From Alphaproteobacteria bacterium (GTDB lineage: Bacteria; Pseudomonadota; Alphaproteobacteria; RF32; CAG-239): DNA of 64,000 nt. This document shows positions 21,718 to 48,884 of this stretch, in pieces. The stretch is from NCBI GenBank assembly GCA_017465405.1, contig JAFTWG010000001.1, forward strand, positions 126,261 through 190,260. Reading direction: 5' to 3'. The position numbers and the translations under genes were made by a program. Each line of letters begins with the position of its first letter. Position 1 is the first letter of the stretch. The notes under the pieces are model-generated. The model saw nothing but the letters and a program-made list of their open reading frames with translations, ran no database searches and was not told where the DNA came from.

Positions 21718-22080
21718 ATGAAAAAGATTTTTTATTCATTTATTGCCATAATATTAATGATTACCGCTTGCGGAAAAGACAAATATGAAACCGCTGATAT
21801 TTTGATATTTACCCAGCAAGGATGTAGCCATTGTGAAAATGCGGTAGAATTTATCAACAATCGCATATTACCGAAAAATCCTGAACTTAAATTTGTAGAA
21901 GTTGACATCACTTATGATAGCAAAAATATACAAATATTAAAAAAATTCCTGACTAAATATAATTTCAAAGGTAACGAAATCGGAACTCCGATTATCATTT
22001 TCAACAACCAATTATTGATGGGTTGGAACATCAAAAACAAAGTAAAATTACAAAAAACTTTTGAATTTGATAAAGACTAA
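21718..22080 (+). CDS. thioredoxin/glutaredoxin-fold lipoprotein (CxxC)
   Basis: Lipobox 'ITAC', then 'FTQQGCSHCENAVEF' CxxC in a glutaredoxin-like context. Confidence 0.45.
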   Translation: MKKIFYSFIAIILMITACGKDKYETADILIFTQQGCSHCENAVEFINNRILPKNPELKFVEVDITYDSKNIQILKKFLTKYNFKGNEIGTPIIIFNNQLLMGWNIKNKVKLQKTFEFDKD

Positions 22081-23648: not shown

Positions 23649-24053
23649 ATGAAAAAATTAATACTAATATTAATGATTGTAGCTATTTTGCCCGGATGTG
23701 CTACAATAATTAAAGGAAAAACTAAAGATATCAATATATTAACCAATACAGGGGAAGAAGCCGTAGTTGATGTTGTATCTGCTTCTGGTGTTCAAACTGT
23801 TACAATTCCATCAGTTGTAAATGTTAAAAAAGATAACAGACCGATAACTATTACAGTTAAAGGGGATAAATGTCACAGGGCAACAACCACTATAGTACCA
23901 GAAAAAGTAGAATTATGGACTATAGCTAATGTTTTCCTGTATGTATTTGATTTAACAGGAACAACAACAGATGCCTCAACTGGTGCTATGTGGGATTATG
24001 ATGACAGTATCGTAGTACCCGTATATCAAAAAAATGGCTGTTCATCTAGATAA
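23649..24053 (+). CDS. small lipoprotein (134 aa)
   Basis: 'ILPGCAT' lipobox after a hydrophobic signal. Confidence 0.4.
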   Translation: MKKLILILMIVAILPGCATIIKGKTKDINILTNTGEEAVVDVVSASGVQTVTIPSVVNVKKDNRPITITVKGDKCHRATTTIVPEKVELWTIANVFLYVFDLTGTTTDASTGAMWDYDDSIVVPVYQKNGCSSR

Positions 24054-25602
24054 AATTATTTTAAGCCTTTTAAGTATTGTATATATCAATAATGCTTATG
24101 CTCAATATGATTTTGATTTACAAAATGATATATACAAATCTTCTGATTGGCATAATTTATTGCATTATGAGAAAGGAAAAAGTGTTATCGATAAAAATAG
24201 CGCATTTTTCCTTTCTCCCGAAGGATATAAAAATCCTAAAGCAGAATATATTGCCACAATCAAAGAATTTTTAAATACAGATAACTTAAACGACAAACAT
24301 GCAATTTGTCGTTATCCGGCAAGATTTAACTATATTTTGCAAACATTAAATTTGTCTGACGATAAATTTCCTAAACCTAATTGCTACGATTATACAGAAT
24401 ATAAAAACAAAGTTCCTTTCGAAAAAATATCCATAATTTTTGCTGCCGAAAACAATATCAGTCCGTCAACAATGCTCGGACATTCGTTTTTAAAAATTGA
24501 AGGGCAAAATAAAGCTCACTCTTTCAGCTATTTTGCCGCTTTTGATACAACTAATTCTCTCAATTTTTATACCAAAGTATTAACTTCCGGTATCGATGGT
24601 ATGTATATATTATCCCCTTATAGAGTAAAACAAAACGAATATATAAATAAAGAAAAACGCTCATTATGGGAGTTTGAACTACAATTAAATGAAAACGAAA
24701 AAGAAAAGCTAAAGGCTCATTTATGGGAATTAAAAGATAAAAATATAAAATATAAATTTGTTTCCCATAACTGTAACACGGCTCTAATCAATATCTTAAA
24801 AACTGCAAATAGCAATTTTTCGTCCGGTAACATAAAACCTTTTATAACACCGGTAGAATATATTCAAGAATTGCAAGACAAAGACAAAATAAGCAACATA
24901 AGTATTGAACCATCAGTATCTCAAAAAAAAGCCATACAAAAATTCGGATTAAATTATGTCGGAAATGCCCCTAAACCTATGCGATTTTCTTTTTCTCAAG
25001 ATTTATCTAACAATATAAGCAATATAAATTTCAGTCCGGTATATCAAGATATAAGAGATATTTCCAATGCTTATTTTCCCGATTTAGAAAGCAAAATGCT
25101 TGATTTATCGTTCAATTATTACAATGCAAAAAAGAAATTTGTAATTGATAAAATTGATATATTAAAAATGCAATCCGTTATTGATTATCAAACGACGGGC
25201 AGCTTGTCTAAATATTTTCGTTTAGGTTTCGAGAACAATCTGTTTTCAAATAAAAATTCTATCAAACCAGTTGTAGAACTTGGATTGGGAATAGGAAAGA
25301 AAATTGCTTCAACCACTTTTTATATCTTACCTAAAATAGGATATCACTATGATAATTTTTCAAATTTTTATATAAATCCTCAAGTCGGTTTTATATCAAG
25401 AATAAATGATAAAACAAAGCTTTTATTTTCTTATGAAAAATATTTTAACAGCAATAAAAATAACATCGAATTTGAAGAAAAATATAACTTGTATTTAGGC
25501 TATAAAATATTTGAAAATACTGAAATGTATATTGACTACTCCCATTTTTATAATGCCAGAAACAGTGAAGCACTAACAACCGGTGTAACATTTCATTTTT
25601 AA
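24034..25602 (+). CDS. secreted/outer-membrane protein, possibly Lnb/DUF4105-like N-domain with C-terminal beta-barrel
   Basis: Signal peptide 'NNAYAQ' and a C-terminus ending 'TTGVTFHF', which is OMP-like. The family call is from memory only. Confidence 0.35.
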   Translation: MAVHLDKIILSLLSIVYINNAYAQYDFDLQNDIYKSSDWHNLLHYEKGKSVIDKNSAFFLSPEGYKNPKAEYIATIKEFLNTDNLNDKHAICRYPARFNYILQTLNLSDDKFPKPNCYDYTEYKNKVPFEKISIIFAAENNISPSTMLGHSFLKIEGQNKAHSFSYFAAFDTTNSLNFYTKVLTSGIDGMYILSPYRVKQNEYINKEKRSLWEFELQLNENEKEKLKAHLWELKDKNIKYKFVSHNCNTALINILKTANSNFSSGNIKPFITPVEYIQELQDKDKISNISIEPSVSQKKAIQKFGLNYVGNAPKPMRFSFSQDLSNNISNINFSPVYQDIRDISNAYFPDLESKMLDLSFNYYNAKKKFVIDKIDILKMQSVIDYQTTGSLSKYFRLGFENNLFSNKNSIKPVVELGLGIGKKIASTTFYILPKIGYHYDNFSNFYINPQVGFISRINDKTKLLFSYEKYFNSNKNNIEFEEKYNLYLGYKIFENTEMYIDYSHFYNARNSEALTTGVTFHF

Positions 25603-25668: not shown

Positions 25669-26583
25669 TCATTTTTGTGTGCCTTTTATAAAATCTAGCA
25701 CATCACTCCATACTTTTTGTTTGCCTACTTCATTTAATACTTCGTGTCTCATTTTCGGATAAATCAAAGAGCTTACATTTTGATACCCTACTTTGTGCAT
25801 AAAATTAACCGCATTGTAAAATTTTTGCTCAGAAATCATACAAGCGTCATCGGAACCGGAAATAAAGAGAATGGGCATCGTCGGTTGAGAAACTTTCCAC
25901 CCTTTGTGGCAATAGGTTTCTCCCATCATCTTCATAAGATTGTTCGCTCCGTTCATTGTAAATCTGAAATTGCACAGAGGATTCTCTCGTACACTTTTTC
26001 GCGCCTCAGGGTCGGAACAAGTCCAAGCCTGTGTTCCCTCTGATACAAACTTTTTGTTATAAACATCGGATGTAAACATCTGAATCAATTTAGAACGAGA
26101 ACGACCAAACCCCGTTAAACAAGCAATTCCGGTCAAAAAACGTCCGACAACAGATAATGGATTCCAACTGGGACTGCCGCAAACTATCAAACCGGACAAG
26201 GTTGAATCGTTTTGCTTTGCATATACCCTCGCTGCTAATGAACCCATACTGTGACCGAGAAGATAATAAGGTAATCCGCAAAATTCCTTTAGTCCCCAGT
26301 CAACTATGGTTTTGATGTCAGCAACAAGTGCCTTGTAGCCGCCCGAATAGAAATATCCGAGATCGTTTATATCCTTAACACTCTCTCCGTGACCACGAAG
26401 ATCGGCAGCGATACAAACAATACCATTATCCGAAAGAAAATTCATTAGCGGTCTGAACCTTTCTTTACATCCACACATTCCATGCACAAGCTGAATAACG
26501 GCCAAAGGTTTATCCTTCGGTAGGCTTACCGCAACAGCAAGACTCAGGTCGTCATAACCTGATTTCAATGTGAAACTTTTCAT
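25669..26583 (-). CDS. alpha/beta hydrolase (lysophospholipase/monoacylglycerol lipase-like)
   Basis: Nucleophile elbow 'GHSMGS' and an HGxxG-like 'VHGMCG'. Confidence 0.7.
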   Translation of the reverse strand: MKSFTLKSGYDDLSLAVAVSLPKDKPLAVIQLVHGMCGCKERFRPLMNFLSDNGIVCIAADLRGHGESVKDINDLGYFYSGGYKALVADIKTIVDWGLKEFCGLPYYLLGHSMGSLAARVYAKQNDSTLSGLIVCGSPSWNPLSVVGRFLTGIACLTGFGRSRSKLIQMFTSDVYNKKFVSEGTQAWTCSDPEARKSVRENPLCNFRFTMNGANNLMKMMGETYCHKGWKVSQPTMPILFISGSDDACMISEQKFYNAVNFMHKVGYQNVSSLIYPKMRHEVLNEVGKQKVWSDVLDFIKGTQK

Positions 26584-26690
26584 AGGTAATAATTTATAAG
26601 TGATATTAGAATAGACAGAATTTTAAACAAAATCCCAATCCGTGTCAACAAAAAAGCGATGAAATATTGATTTTATACCTATGATATTTA

Positions 26691-29012
26691 TTAATGACGG
26701 CGCATTACTAAAAGACCTGTTCTTGTTCTCATATACTCTTTTTTAACCCCATTTTGTCTAATGATTTCCGCAATATCATCATATCCTTTTGTTACAGCAT
26801 ATAACATTGCCGTAGACCCATAATTACTTTCCGCATTAACATCGGCACCTTTAGATAAAAGTAATTCAACAATTTCTTTTTTCCCATCATACGATGCCTT
26901 CATCAATGCAGTATCGCCATTATCATCTTTAGCATTAATATCTGCTCCTTTTGATAAAAGTAATTCAACAATTTCTTTATGTCCGTTTGACGATGCATAT
27001 GTCAATGCAGTATAGCCATTATTACTAGCTTTAGCATTAATATCTGCTCCTTTTGATAAAAGTAATTCAACAACTTCTTTTTTTCCGCTCAACGATGCCA
27101 TTATCAATGCAGTACCAACATCATCATTAGCATTAATATCTGCTCCTTTTGATAAAAGTAATTCAACAACTTCTTTTTTTCCATTCAACGATGCAAACAT
27201 TAATGCAGTAAAGCCAGCTTTAGATTTAGCATTAATATCCGCACCTTTAGATAAAAGTAATTCAACAATTTCTTTATATCCTCGACCTGAAGCAGACATT
27301 AATGTGGTATTCCCATCATTCGCTATCACATTAATATTCGTACCTTTAGATAAAAGTAATTCAGCGATTTCTTTATATCCGTCCAGTAAAGCAAGGAAAA
27401 AAGCAGTATACCCATCATTATTTTTCGCATCAACATCAGCACCTTTTGATACAAGAAATTCAACAAATTCTTTATTTCCTAAAGTTGTAGCAAGTATCAA
27501 TGCTGTTTTACCTTCATTATTTTTTGAATTAATATTTGCTCCGCTGTTAATTTCTTTTTCTATATCCTCAAATGTTCGACCGTTTAACCATTCAATATTT
27601 GCGAGTGTATCAGCACTTTTTAAGCACGTGGTACGATCTTCATTTTCTTTACATCTATATAATTCCTTAAAATAACAAGGCTCAAGATATGGATTTGTTT
27701 TTCCAATATTTAATGTACCATAAATGCTAACAGATACTTTTTCGCCTTTAGTGGCTTTTTCTAATTTTTCAGATTCTTCTATACTCATTATACAAGGCAG
27801 AATTTCTGATATATCATAATATGTAATACTATCATAATTATCATTAAATTTCATTATATGAAAATCTTTAATTAGAATATTTTTACCATCATATTTGTCT
27901 GAAGTTCTTTTTCGCCCTCCCGGACTTTCTAAATCTGCGATAATACATCCAAATCCTTTACAAGCCCCTCGAACTCCAGGAATTACCATATCAAATGTAT
28001 AATCTATCTTTGATTTTTTATCTGAAGTATCATCTTCTGAAAATGATAAACGGCTATTAGCATAAACATCACACACTTCCTTTTTTTCCTCTATGTGTTT
28101 AAAAACATTTATAATTTTTTGAATATCATCTTTTTCTAATATATTTAATGGAAAACCATTTATAATTAAGCTTGTAACATTTGTAATTTGGTTTTTGACC
28201 ACAGCTTTATCTGATGGCACTATTTCTGTATTATTATCGGGCTGTGTACTATTAAGGTTAAATTTTTCTTTAATATGATTTAATTTACTATCTAAATCAC
28301 TATCGTTAAAATCAATTTCCATCAATTCTTTATAAACTTCATATGAGTTTTTTCCATTTTGGGAAGCTATCAAAATATCTATAGCTTTTTTAGTATATGT
28401 GTTATCAGTCTCCAGTGGTCTAAATACAAATTTTACATCAGGGTTATCTTGGATTAAGCTATTCAATACAGGGAAAAGTTTTTTTGAATATGGACAGTAA
28501 AAATCAAAAAATTCTGTAATAACAACTTTGGCATCATCTGGACCTACAACTATTCCATTATCATCATTTTCCAGAATCTTTATTTTTTCATTATTTAATT
28601 TTTTAAGATAGTCAGATTTATCTGGTGTCTGGATAATATTAACAACATTTGTTATTTTACAATTTTTGCCATTAGATAAGTTTAATTCTTCTTTCACCTC
28701 TCCGTTCTCGTATTTTGAAAGTAAATTGCCATTTAACACACCATCAATATAATTTGCTTCAATTTCAATTCCACCAGATGGAAAATATGAAGTAAACTTA
28801 CCATTTCTTTTTCCATCTTTATATAATACAACTTTTTCTAATACTTCATTATTATATTTTTTTACAATACCCGTAATCGGTTTTTGTTTTTTGTCATAAC
28901 ATATATTATCCGTATTACAGATAATATCATTATAATTATATTCTTTATCACCACATCCACAAAGTGTTGACAATACAGAAAGCATTAAAAGTGTTTTGTG
29001 TCCGAGTTTCAT
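26691..29012 (-). CDS. multidomain lipoprotein-signal protein: MORN/YwqK-like repeats + DsbA-like (CxxS) thioredoxin domain + 8-9 ankyrin repeats
   Basis: N-terminal 'LSTLCGCG'. MORN-like 'YKDGKRNGKFTSYFPSGG...NYIDGVLNG'. 'VVITEFFDFYCPYSKKLFPVLN...FVFRPL' is homologous to the DsbA at 48156-48884. The C-terminus has highly similar 33-aa ANK units 'GKKEVVELLLSKGADINAK'. Confidence 0.7.
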   Translation of the reverse strand: MKLGHKTLLMLSVLSTLCGCGDKEYNYNDIICNTDNICYDKKQKPITGIVKKYNNEVLEKVVLYKDGKRNGKFTSYFPSGGIEIEANYIDGVLNGNLLSKYENGEVKEELNLSNGKNCKITNVVNIIQTPDKSDYLKKLNNEKIKILENDDNGIVVGPDDAKVVITEFFDFYCPYSKKLFPVLNSLIQDNPDVKFVFRPLETDNTYTKKAIDILIASQNGKNSYEVYKELMEIDFNDSDLDSKLNHIKEKFNLNSTQPDNNTEIVPSDKAVVKNQITNVTSLIINGFPLNILEKDDIQKIINVFKHIEEKKEVCDVYANSRLSFSEDDTSDKKSKIDYTFDMVIPGVRGACKGFGCIIADLESPGGRKRTSDKYDGKNILIKDFHIMKFNDNYDSITYYDISEILPCIMSIEESEKLEKATKGEKVSVSIYGTLNIGKTNPYLEPCYFKELYRCKENEDRTTCLKSADTLANIEWLNGRTFEDIEKEINSGANINSKNNEGKTALILATTLGNKEFVEFLVSKGADVDAKNNDGYTAFFLALLDGYKEIAELLLSKGTNINVIANDGNTTLMSASGRGYKEIVELLLSKGADINAKSKAGFTALMFASLNGKKEVVELLLSKGADINANDDVGTALIMASLSGKKEVVELLLSKGADINAKASNNGYTALTYASSNGHKEIVELLLSKGADINAKDDNGDTALMKASYDGKKEIVELLLSKGADVNAESNYGSTAMLYAVTKGYDDIAEIIRQNGVKKEYMRTRTGLLVMRRH
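26780..27480. repeat. tandem ~99-bp nucleotide repeats inside the ankyrin gene
   Basis: 'agcattaatatctgctccttttgataaaagtaattcaacaa' recurs near 26932, 27032, 27130 and 27228. Confidence 0.7.
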
Positions 29013-29229
29013 TTTACATCTCCATAAAAGCCCATTTATGGCGATGCTAATTAATTATATTCATATCATTTTATATAAAATTCATAATTTCCAACAATTC
29101 TGTGGATTTATAGTCCTTTTTTATTTAAATTTTAACATTTTCCCCTTATTCTCAGGCTATATAATCTAAATGGGCATCTATTTTATATATCCTTGATAAA
29201 TAATAATACAATTTATCAAGGATTTAGTT

Positions 29230-29835
29230 ATGACAATTTATGCTTATATCAGGGTCAGTTCAGACCAACAGAACTGTGCTAATCAGAAATATAGTTTGGA
29301 TGAATATGCTGCTAAAAATAAAATTAAAATCAATGAATATATAGAAGAAACCATATCTTCAAGAAAGCATCTAAAAGATAGAAAATTAGGTAAATTATTG
29401 GATAAAATTGGTGAACAAGACCTAATCATCACCACTGAAATCTCAAGACTTGGAAGGAATATGCTTGAAGTAATGGGGATTCTCCAACAATGCTTGGAAA
29501 AAGAATGTGAAATCATTACTATAAAGGAAAATTACCATCTTGGTGCTGATATTCAGTCAAAAGTGCTTGCATTTGCATTCTCTCTTGCTGCTGAAATTGA
29601 AAGGCAACTTATCTCCCAAAGAACCAAGGAGTGTCTTAAAAGATTAAAAAATGAAGGCAAACATTTAGGAAGACCATATGGGTTTACATATAAAAAATTA
29701 AAAAAGAAGCATAATAAAATAAAAGAATTATTGGATAAAAATGTATCCAAGGCAGAAATATCAAGATTGATGGGATGCACTTGGTCCACACTTCATAGAT
29801 ACATCAATGAGTTTATAAAAGTAAAAGAACCATAG
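29230..29835 (+). CDS. serine recombinase (resolvase/invertase family) with C-terminal HTH
   Basis: 'IYAYIRVSSDQQ' catalytic Ser motif, 'EISRLGRN', and a C-terminal 'SKAEISRLMGCTWSTLHRY' HTH. Confidence 0.8.
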   Translation: MTIYAYIRVSSDQQNCANQKYSLDEYAAKNKIKINEYIEETISSRKHLKDRKLGKLLDKIGEQDLIITTEISRLGRNMLEVMGILQQCLEKECEIITIKENYHLGADIQSKVLAFAFSLAAEIERQLISQRTKECLKRLKNEGKHLGRPYGFTYKKLKKKHNKIKELLDKNVSKAEISRLMGCTWSTLHRYINEFIKVKEP

Positions 29836-29904: not shown

Positions 29905-29933
29905 AACAAAAAACCGCCGAAATCGGCGGTTTT
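29905..29933. terminator. hairpin 'aaaaaccgccgaaatcggcggttttt'
   Basis: Inverted repeat with A/T flanks, between the recombinase and tRNA-Asp. Confidence 0.55.
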
Positions 29934-29937
29934 TAAG

Positions 29938-30014
29938 TGGCGGGAGTGACGAGGCTCGAACTCGCGACCTCCTGCGTGACAGGCAGGCGCTCTAACCAAC
30001 TGAGCTACACCCCC
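29938..30014 (-). tRNA. tRNA-Asp (GUC)
   Basis: Reverse complement reads 'GGGGGTGTAGCTCAGTTGGTTAGAGCGCCTGCCTGTCACGCAGGAGGTCGCGAGTTCGAGCCTCGTCACTCCCGCCA'. Anticodon stem cctgc/gcagg with loop ctGTCac, T-loop TTCGAGC, and an encoded CCA. Confidence 0.8.
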
Positions 30015-48155: not shown

Positions 48156-48884
48156 CTATTTTGCTGCATCAATTTTTGCTTGAATTTCAGCAGAGAACGG
48201 TTGAACAATTTCACCATTCAAAATCAAAGTCGGAACACCGCCTACTTCAATATTTTGAGCCAATTCGTTGTTAGCAGCGAAAGCAGCTTCAACCTTTTCA
48301 GATTTCATATCTTCTTTCATTTTGTTAACATCGATACCGGCTTTTTCTGCCAATTCATTAACCAATTCTTCGCTCAAAGATTTTTGAACTGTGAACAATG
48401 CTGTATGCAATTCTGTAAATTTGCCTTGTTCATTAGCAGCCAAAACTGCTTTCGCAGCATATTCAGAGTGCGGAGAAACGAAAGCTAATGGTCTCAATAC
48501 CAATTTTACATCAGTATTTTTAGCCAAAACTTGATTCAACTCTGGGAACAATCTGTGGCAGTATCCGCAAGCATAATCAAAAAATTCAACAATTACAACT
48601 TCAGCATCAGCACTACCTTGGAAAGGAGCATTGTCAGCTTTCAAAGCTTCTTCATGTTCTTTAATTTTAGCTTTTAAATTAGCTTCTGCTTCTTCTCTGG
48701 CTTTAATTTCATAGGCTTGCAAAGCATTGATTACATATTCCGGATGGTCTTTCAAAATTTGTTCAACATTAACCGGAGCATTGTTTTGTTCAGCAGCTTT
48801 TTTAGCACATGGCAAATAGTCTTTAACCAAAGCAGCAACAGCAACCAACAAAGCGATAATTGAAATAACAAGTGATTTTTTCAT
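48156..48884 (-). CDS. periplasmic thiol:disulfide interchange protein, DsbA family
   Basis: Signal peptide and 'EFFDYACGYCHRLFPEL' CxxC in a DsbA-like context. Confidence 0.7.
   Translation of the reverse strand: MKKSLVISIIALLVAVAALVKDYLPCAKKAAEQNNAPVNVEQILKDHPEYVINALQAYEIKAREEAEANLKAKIKEHEEALKADNAPFQGSADAEVVIVEFFDYACGYCHRLFPELNQVLAKNTDVKLVLRPLAFVSPHSEYAAKAVLAANEQGKFTELHTALFTVQKSLSEELVNELAEKAGIDVNKMKEDMKSEKVEAAFAANNELAQNIEVGGVPTLILNGEIVQPFSAEIQAKIDAAK

Follow-up and report, generated by a model that had tools for sequence, protein, structure and literature searches.

In a 64,000-nucleotide stretch of contig JAFTWG010000001.1 from a gut alphaproteobacterium (the window, that is, the whole stretch of DNA analyzed), the gene at 26691-29012 on the minus strand is best read as encoding a phase-variable, lipid-anchored envelope protein. 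Its synthesis would be turned ON and OFF by an adjoining DNA invertase of the Mpi type, and its ankyrin array may, in addition, change in length. The probability of this reading is put at roughly 0.55. All evidence is computational, and the sequences stem from metagenome assemblies. The open reading frame (ORF) of 773 residues was confirmed as real; it begins with ATG, preceded by GGAGA 6 nt upstream, and the identical protein is deposited under the name [quoted passage not shown] on a 196-kb contig. The window (G+C content 34%) contains the genes for SecA, ClpB, L7/L12, and L10; related contigs derive from ruminant-gut metagenomes, namely, the XIEF21-1 scaffold and metagenome-assembled genomes (MAGs) from water deer, sheep, and roe deer. 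Five modules follow one another in the protein: signal peptide and lipobox (residues 1-20), a MORN module (21-116), a DsbA-like domain (~121-305), a six-cysteine domain (~334-466), and ankyrin repeats (~479-752). The first-pass annotation had listed four of them; the six-cysteine domain, the loss of the cis-proline from the DsbA-like domain, and the invertase switch go beyond it. The exported lipoprotein would display four binding modules in series, either within the periplasm or on the surface of the cell.

26691..29012, minus strand: coding sequence (CDS) of the mosaic lipoprotein (identical protein NCBI MBQ8784549.1)
29230..29835, plus strand: gene for a serine recombinase of 201 residues, probably of the Mpi (master DNA invertase) family (Pfam Resolvase, NCBIfam NF009949)
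29019..29044, no strand: site A, 26-bp dyad, TCTCCATAAAAG-CC-CATTTATGGCGA (repeat and site alignment)
29031..29174, no strand: putative invertible segment, measured from core to core, with 142 bp separating the central dinucleotides
29161..29186, no strand: site B, 26-bp dyad, ATAATCTAAATG-GG-CATCTATTTTAT (repeat and site alignment)
29190..29222, no strand: conserved palindrome (I15), TCCTTGATAAAT-N9-ATTTATCAAGGA, candidate operator or accessory site abutting the invertase start codon

The recombinase gene is divergent from the lipoprotein gene, with an intergenic region of 217 bp between them. Its product matches the NCBIfam model "master DNA invertase Mpi family serine-type recombinase" (NF009949) over positions 2-197 of 203 (E-value 7e-77); matches in the PDB are γδ resolvase and a chain deposited as "DNA-invertase," and HTH_7 is recorded for homologues. 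As the cores of the two sites, CC and GG, are mutual reverse complements, sites A and B are in inverted orientation. The outer half of site A is the reverse complement of the Shine-Dalgarno region of the lipoprotein gene. The enzyme would flip the segment of ~140 bp between the 26-bp dyads, one of which lies over the ribosome-binding site, and thereby cause ON/OFF variation. The inverted state in the window strain would be recognizable by the junctions CCATAAAAGCCCATTTAGATTAT and GCCATAAATGGGCATCTATTTT or, in their longer form, ...CCATAAAAGCCCATTTAGATTATATAGCC... and ...GCATCGCCATAAATGGGCATCTATTTTATA... A perfect TATAAT (29160-29165) points toward the invertase in the window state, and inversion would turn it toward the lipoprotein gene, which is no more than a hint as to the state of the switch. 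Dyad sites of 26 bp with a core of 2 bp, as in the window, are also the design of hix and gix; the TAAAyGG-type site of the window is not known to be related to the repeats recognized by Mpi. Phase variation, which had been attributed to changes in the repeat array, is more plausibly driven by this switch than by repeat slippage.

A scan of GTDB with the recombinase yielded 38 loci, almost all in MAGs of gut Alphaproteobacteria, from ruminants, horse, mouse, rabbit, and Hadza people. The 38 upstream regions that were analyzed comprised the scan loci with enough upstream sequence, the window, and two further loci (L006 and L008), some loci contributing two copies. An 11-nt inverted repeat (≤1 mismatch) with a spacing of 90-160 nt was present at the equivalent position in 28 of the 38, compared with 1.5 on average, and 4 at most, in shuffled controls. 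The cores vary between loci but are complementary within each: GCCC/GGGC in the window, GTCCG/CGGAC in L013, GCTCT/AGAGC in L017, GACCG/CGGTC in L014, and CCACCG/CGGTGG in L031. Moreover, the inner half-sites of L006, L015, L017, and L019, where the CTCTCCATAAA-type half lies beside the invertase and the TATAnnCTAAA-type half beside the cargo gene, are swapped compared with those of the window, L009, L010, L013, L008, L022, L014, L016, and L033. The segments align better as reverse complements between these groups and better in forward orientation within a group (L006 versus L014, 0.71 identity as reverse complement and 0.18 forward; L006 versus L015, 0.66 forward and 0.49 otherwise). Swapped inner half-sites together with reverse-complemented segments are the expected product of inversion; thus, homologous loci in different genomes show the segment in either orientation. 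That the window strain switches likewise is suggested by its sites and its enzyme. The genes facing these switches encode a Type ISP restriction enzyme, EcoRI-like and N6 adenine methylases, an autotransporter, an RgpF-type polysaccharide protein, and MORN and six-cysteine lipoproteins. As the cargo includes restriction systems, an autotransporter, and a polysaccharide gene, the lipoprotein may be an exposed structure under fluctuating selection by phage, host immunity, or competitors.

Several further observations concern this family of switches. The invertases of L008 and of L022/L023 are each 79% identical to that of the window, and L008 and L022 share 84% identity in the switch segment, but the cargo differs entirely (SHOCT and six-cysteine proteins in L008, an autotransporter of 1013 residues in L022/L023). 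As such similar switches face unlike cargo, the invertase-plus-switch unit could be a portable module which gut Alphaproteobacteria place before very different genes. Small ankyrin proteins of 159-240 residues are encoded just downstream of the invertase genes in eight loci (L009, L010, L011, L016, L019, L024, L025, and L027; for example, L025 6628-7314, minus strand), often near integrase-like genes; they match the window array weakly (E-values 1e-6 to 1e-9), and a signal peptide is not obvious in the N-termini seen. Paired invertase genes, 1.5-4 kb apart and each with its own upstream inverted repeats, form switch clusters in L022/L023 (6001, 7373), L037 (5995, 9392), L043 (2219, 5991), and L034. 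Related invertases in bins labeled Gastranaerophilales and Muribaculaceae (L045, L046, and L020) were either spread horizontally or binned wrongly. On JAEIGA010138742.1 (L051), a related switch, TTCTCCATAATTGCCCATTTAGATTATATAGC ... CATTCTCCATATATGGGCAATTATGGAGAA, occupies ~236-500 between two divergent genes that share the starting peptide MSMYKPEDVVRDELRNI; the contig of 3.7 kb carries no recombinase, and a flip there could choose between two alternative genes.

The N-terminus of the window protein fits that of an exported lipoprotein.

28953..29012, minus strand: signal peptide with lipobox L17-C18-G19-C20, residues 1-20 (PROSITE-type pattern match)
28665..28952, minus strand: N-terminal module, residues 21-116, with a Cys32/Cys38 pair and three 23-residue MORN-variant repeats (Pfam, homology, periodicity)

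The stretch MLSVLSTLCGC satisfies PROSITE rule PS51257 (basic n-region, hydrophobic h-region, lipobox [LIVMFWSTAG]2-[LIVMFYSTAGCQ]-[AGS]-C, cysteine at position 15-35), with K2 and K6 as basic residues and Cys20 as the residue predicted to be lipidated; the homologue in L006 aligns ILGGC with this lipobox. The product would, hence, be exported via Sec and lipid-anchored in the envelope. The MORN repeats proposed in the first-pass annotation are a less clear case: three variant repeats of 23 residues are discernible by eye, but Pfam MORN_2 (PF07661) scores 21.1 bits (E-value 3e-4), below its gathering score of 29.6, and homologues give "faint" matches. Stapled by a disulfide, this N-terminus with its MORN-variant repeats would be the first binding module.

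The second module belongs to the DsbA family (Pfam PF01323/PF13462) and can be compared with a canonical DsbA encoded elsewhere in the window.

28098..28652, minus strand: DsbA/ScsC-fold domain, residues ~121-305 (Pfam, PDB sequence matches, AlphaFold2, Foldseek)
28485..28496, minus strand: active-site motif CPYS, residues 173-176, in place of CxxC (alignments)
28170..28178, minus strand: V279-T280-S281 in place of the V-cisPro-T loop (alignments)
48156..48884, minus strand: resident canonical DsbA (CGYC, VPT), the gene used for comparison (Pfam, alignments)

Over residues 151-302, both DSBA (36.4 bits; E-value 6e-9) and Thioredoxin_4 (34 bits; E-value 4e-8) score above their cut-offs, and sequence matches in the PDB are ScsC and DsbA-like proteins. 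The DsbA fold, on which the first-pass annotation had staked its assignment, was predicted by AlphaFold2 from an alignment of 71 sequences with a predicted local distance difference test (pLDDT) score of 90-97 across the domain. Foldseek matched the domain to Salmonella ScsC (4gxz), with a template modeling (TM) score of 0.70-0.77 on the target, and gave a probability of 1.00 for ScsC and DsbA matches; further matches were 3gyk, the ScsC proteins of Proteus and Caulobacter, DsbA1 of Francisella, BcfH, and α-DsbA2 of Wolbachia, with ScsC, DsbA1, BcfH, and α-DsbA2 ranking highest. Pfam, AlphaFold2, and Foldseek together show a thioredoxin fold with a helical insertion.

Alignment with the resident DsbA confirmed that CGYC is replaced by CPYS, as previously noticed (FFDYACGYCHRLFP corresponds to FFDFYCPYSKKLFP in the lipoprotein), and revealed a second exchange, from GVPTLILNG in the resident DsbA to NVTSLIING. 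Both are singular. Among 66 aligned sequences, the window protein is the sole one with CxxS (64 of the 65 homologues have CxxC, one has FGYC), and it is the sole aligned member lacking the proline, which 64 homologues retain (VPT, VPA, or VPS in 63, TPT in one). As CPYS stands for CGYC and VTS for VPT, the resolving cysteine and the cis-proline are both gone; without an active-site disulfide, the domain should be unable to act as an oxidase. Judging from these residues, it has probably lost the ability to donate disulfides. In E. coli DsbA, a mixed disulfide can still form at Cys30 after the exchange C33A but is no longer resolved; with P151T, the loop changes to trans, and turnover is severely reduced (PMC13269488). 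The earlier claim that the domain forms mixed disulfides is, thus, one possibility, but as the cis-proline is also lost, a dead peptide-binding module is at least as likely as a covalent holder of partners. Keeping the nucleophilic cysteine only, the domain would hold a partner by a long-lived mixed disulfide at most, or by its peptide groove. Because it unites both changes that stall DsbA in the laboratory (loss of the resolving cysteine, cis-proline to threonine), it is conceivable, albeit a long shot, that it serves as a natural covalent capture device in which Cys173 would enter long-lived disulfides with a host, phage, or neighboring-cell protein recognized by the ankyrin repeats.

Paralogy with the resident DsbA, which had been called clear, holds at the level of the family (33% identity over 179 residues in BLASTP; E-value 1e-17), but not in the sense of a recent copy. 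Identity to other alphaproteobacterial DsbAs ranges from 26 to 44%, so that the resident DsbA (~33%) is no nearer than these, and the domain is an old or imported family member rather than a recent duplicate. Its G+C content is 25.6%, compared with 36.2% for the resident dsbA gene. The resident DsbA is likely the enzyme that makes the disulfides of the lipoprotein.

The third module behind the signal peptide connects the protein to other switch-linked loci.

27615..28013, minus strand: six-cysteine domain, residues ~334-466, with invariant Cys351, 356, 407, 446, 454, and 463 (HMMER, alignment)

No domain library matches this domain. When residues 306-488 were compared exhaustively by HMMER with 1.84 billion representative proteins, only two true relatives emerged: P0188 (188 residues, 61% identity, with its own lipobox LLSAC) and P0189 (221 residues, 42% identity, with a hydrophobic N-terminal anchor). 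A third candidate, P0190, was dropped as a spurious repetitive match. The genes for P0188 and P0189 both lie downstream of a divergent recombinase 77-78% identical to that of the window; all three known occurrences of the domain, thus, sit behind switches of the same family. In L006 (metagenome scaffold SZOS23-1_SAMN29183139), the gene order is invertase, a MORN lipoprotein of 361 residues, a secreted MORN protein of 245 residues, and the six-cysteine lipoprotein P0188. The first 119 residues of the 361-residue lipoprotein are 58% identical to window residues 1-116, including signal peptide, lipobox, and cysteine pair. As its N-terminus matches the first cargo gene of L006 and its six-cysteine domain the last, the window gene looks like an operon fusion: the first and last genes of an L006-like operon would have been fused, the DsbA-fold domain inserted between them, and the ankyrin array appended. 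Eight cysteines are common to the window protein and its exported homologues, which, together with the canonical DsbA in the genome, argues for an oxidizing, extracytoplasmic location. The full architecture is unique among 5.8 billion protein clusters. Searches with the full-length protein and its N-terminus returned the protein itself plus ankyrin-only, MORN-only, or DsbA-only matches, and a GTDB scan with the N-terminal 458 residues returned no matches; looking up the exact 773-residue product brought up no contigs.

The last module is the ankyrin array, the length of which differs between assemblies.

26757..27578, minus strand: eight ankyrin repeats, residues ~479-752 (Tandem Repeats Finder, Pfam, unit alignment)
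26922..27114, minus strand: 193-bp stretch (CDS nt 1899-2091) at the junction of the 378-bp difference, present twice in the 899-residue allele (allele comparison)

The tandem 33-residue repeats are matched by Pfam Ank families with E-values from 1e-42 to 1e-64 (Ank_2, 7e-64), the count being 7-8 repeats. That lipoprotein signal, thioredoxin fold, and ankyrin repeats are fused in one protein, as the first-pass annotation had stated, is therefore genuine (lipobox Cys20, DSBA/Thioredoxin_4, and Ank families). Its description of the 99-bp units as near-identical, by contrast, has to be abandoned. Pairwise identity of the units is 60-87% at the DNA level and 36-76% at the protein level, Tandem Repeats Finder reports a period of 99 with 6.5 copies and 78% matches, and the longest perfect internal direct repeat in the gene is 56 nt. 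With units only 60-87% identical, slipped-strand mispairing is unlikely. Phase variation at a homopolymer or simple-sequence tract was ruled out, the longest run in the gene being A7.

The suggestion that the array varies in size fared better, in that the number of repeats differs between assemblies, 8 versus 12, although this difference is possibly an assembly artefact. A longer allele (P0173; 899 residues, 12 repeats), which falls into the same 90% cluster, is carried by three contigs of 0.2-1 Mb, among them L001, which in one flank differs from the window at 11 positions within 9.4 kb (99.86% identity). The allele contains a perfect direct duplication of 193 bp, the copies lying 378 bp apart. 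The window gene consists of the 5′ part of this allele through nt 2091 and its 3′ part from nt 1899, that is, it equals the longer allele minus exactly one in-frame 378-bp unit. Recombinational change, as proposed, would therefore amount to one 378-bp event between 193-bp perfect repeats present only in the long allele. Recombination between the copies and a de Bruijn assembler skipping the loop both predict the same product. In sample ERZ28018951, where the flanks are 100% identical to the window, one MEGAHIT k141 contig breaks off at CDS nt 2039 and another sets in at nt 1951. Coming from either side, these contigs (L048 and L002) each cover 141 nt of the 193-bp stretch and then halt, so that two contexts of the stretch exist in this sample, which a duplication there would explain. 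Array size may vary by recombination between long perfect repeats, and the array may additionally shorten by this route.

The main alternative to a phase-variable envelope protein, which we regard as unlikely, is a periplasmic inhibitor, immunity protein, or chaperone in the manner of Bdellovibrio Bd3460. The ankyrin array would then remain periplasmic and neutralize or escort an envelope enzyme, either an incoming one or one of the cell itself, with a dead DsbA-fold domain holding cysteine-containing clients. An ankyrin array behind a signal peptide, called atypical for translocated effectors in the first-pass annotation, has such precedents: Bd3460 combines a signal peptide with ankyrin repeats, and this protein as well as Rickettsia parkeri RARP-1 and Pseudomonas aeruginosa AnkB are periplasmic and act within the envelope (PMC4686830, PMC9553169). 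ScsC-type domains are also periplasmic, and a gene for an M23 peptidoglycan peptidase lies 1.2 kb from the lipoprotein gene. The latter is, however, parted from it by the invertase and a tRNA gene and stands outside the switch-linked module; at the other two six-cysteine loci, L006 and L008, no M23 peptidase is found among the called genes. An ON/OFF switch would also be unexpected for housekeeping protection. The three precedents are not described as lipoproteins, as containing a DsbA-fold or six-cysteine domain, or as lying behind an invertible switch, and they are much shorter than the window protein (Bd3460, 23 kDa).

Several results weigh against a phase-variable envelope protein. The recombinase scores 257.7 bits, just under the equivalog cut-off of NF009949 (272). 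The opposite orientation of the segment in the window strain was found in none of the assemblies, L001/L047 and L048 being collinear with it; nor did JGI metagenomes, when scanned for the inverted junctions, yield an inverted copy of the window locus, only two chance matches and the related but different switch of L051. Scans of the invertible segment for consensus promoters gave results at or below chance. The 8-repeat form may be an assembly collapse. As for the proposed binding modules, the MORN part was left unmodeled by AlphaFold2 (pLDDT <50), and the six-cysteine domain reached a pLDDT of 30-45 in the larger model and of 33 alone. Some of these points would be accommodated if no programmed variation existed at all, that is, if the recombinase were a leftover mobile-element resolvase, the dyads its res or operator sites, the lipoprotein gene constitutive, and the 8/12 difference purely an artefact. 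A single orientation was observed for the window strain, the 193-bp stretch is exactly where the k141 contigs end, many related recombinase loci adjoin integrases, and a tRNA-Asp gene adjoins here. Swapped half-sites and reverse-complemented segments among homologous loci are, however, what inversion would produce; the cores co-vary within loci, and the best family match of the enzyme is to Mpi invertases, which renders the absence of programmed variation rather improbable.

That the protein is an effector which a type IV or type I system delivers into eukaryotic host cells, in the way known from Legionella, Rickettsia, or Orientia, is very unlikely. This could be invoked on account of partial matches of the array to Dot/Icm Ank effector models, a basic C-terminal tail (MRTRTGLLVMRRH), and one related MAG labeled Rickettsiales. 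These NCBIfam matches cover the repeats only and are all far below cut-off (AnkH, 119 versus 600 bits), whereas the lipobox and the eight conserved cysteines point to an oxidizing extracytoplasmic compartment and the DsbA-fold domain to the cell envelope; among the annotated window genes (the annotation being partial), no secretion-system genes were seen. Mis-assembly of unrelated genes, which would account for an architecture unique in databases and for short-read metagenome assemblies breaking inside the gene, is extremely unlikely, as the 899-residue allele on three long contigs from other assemblies has the same residues 1-697 and the same C-terminus, an independent MEGAHIT contig contains residues 1-679 at 100% identity, and the assembly breaks are confined to the ankyrin repeats.

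Further features of the neighborhood were recorded. The tRNA-Asp gene (29938-30014, minus strand) lies 100 bp past the invertase gene and is preceded by a GC-rich hairpin, AAAAACCGCCGAAATCGGCGGTTTTT, at 29910-29935. An island border in the form of a direct repeat of the tRNA-Asp 3′ end was found nowhere else in the window, and large inverted repeats around the lipoprotein gene were AT-rich chance pairs only, except for palindrome I15. Among Logan contigs near the switch, the one with the M23 gene breaks inside tRNA-Asp and is, hence, uninformative. On the other side of the lipoprotein gene, a promoter-like TTGACA-17-TAAAAT (11 of 12 consensus matches; 26620-26648, minus strand) lies between its stop codon and the gene for an α/β-hydrolase (25669-26583). 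As the hydrolase has its own promoter-like site, it is probably transcribed alone, and co-transcription with the lipoprotein gene was judged unlikely. Two genes from the lipoprotein gene, a protein of 522 residues with Lnb_N, DUF7843, and DUF7840 is encoded (24034-25602, plus strand), a periplasmic protein of the Lnb type, related to lipoproteins. Between 21234 and 24053, ORFs of 139, 376, and 134 residues have no NCBIfam match, the 376-residue ORF also having no Pfam match; together with a fourth of 120 residues (21718-22080), their order is kept in the related strain represented by L001.

Single elements of the proposed system have known counterparts. Bacteroides fragilis Mpi and, more broadly, serine invertase switches of the Hin/Gin type are the nearest of these. 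Mpi, likewise a small serine recombinase, acts on short invertible intergenic segments upstream of surface or restriction genes, as proposed for the window, but the host here is an alphaproteobacterium rather than a member of the Bacteroidales, and each invertase has its own adjoining switch and core, whereas Mpi is one global enzyme acting on many promoters. The domain with CPYS and VTS resembles ScsC/DsbA oxidoreductases in fold (TM scores of 0.65-0.78 on targets), N-terminal helical extension, and predicted periplasmic or lipoprotein context; it differs from them in these two motifs and in being part of a 773-residue protein rather than standing alone with ~240 residues. ERp44 and yeast Eug1p are natural CxxS proteins of the endoplasmic reticulum with a thioredoxin fold, which are not known to lack the cis-proline; by motif, a single nucleophilic cysteine could hold clients in a mixed disulfide here as well, unlike them in a bacterium rather than a eukaryote. 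The closest counterpart is the L006 operon, with an invertase 77% identical, the same switch, the N-terminal module at 58% identity, and the six-cysteine domain at 61%, but with these encoded by separate genes, lacking the DsbA-fold domain and the ankyrin array, and with the switch reversed. Deletion of mpi locks promoter states (PMC10403206). Mpi and promoters that invert are thus familiar, and broad catalogs of invertons exist (PMC10403206; PMC11602134). New are the combination of domains, a natural DsbA fold devoid of both hallmarks, an orphan six-cysteine domain tied to one family of switches, and one-invertase-one-switch cassettes in gut Alphaproteobacteria.

Gut Alphaproteobacteria of the window type are uncultured and almost unstudied. 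A repeat-number difference between assemblies could here be traced to a single pair of perfect repeats longer than the k-mer, and such a difference should be accepted only with long reads. The protein itself is a natural experiment on what the DsbA fold becomes after loss of both catalytic hallmarks. If the proposed reading is true, Mpi-like invertases with private sites would phase-vary restriction enzymes, methylases, an autotransporter, and a lipoprotein in these organisms, a strategy mainly documented in the Bacteroidales.

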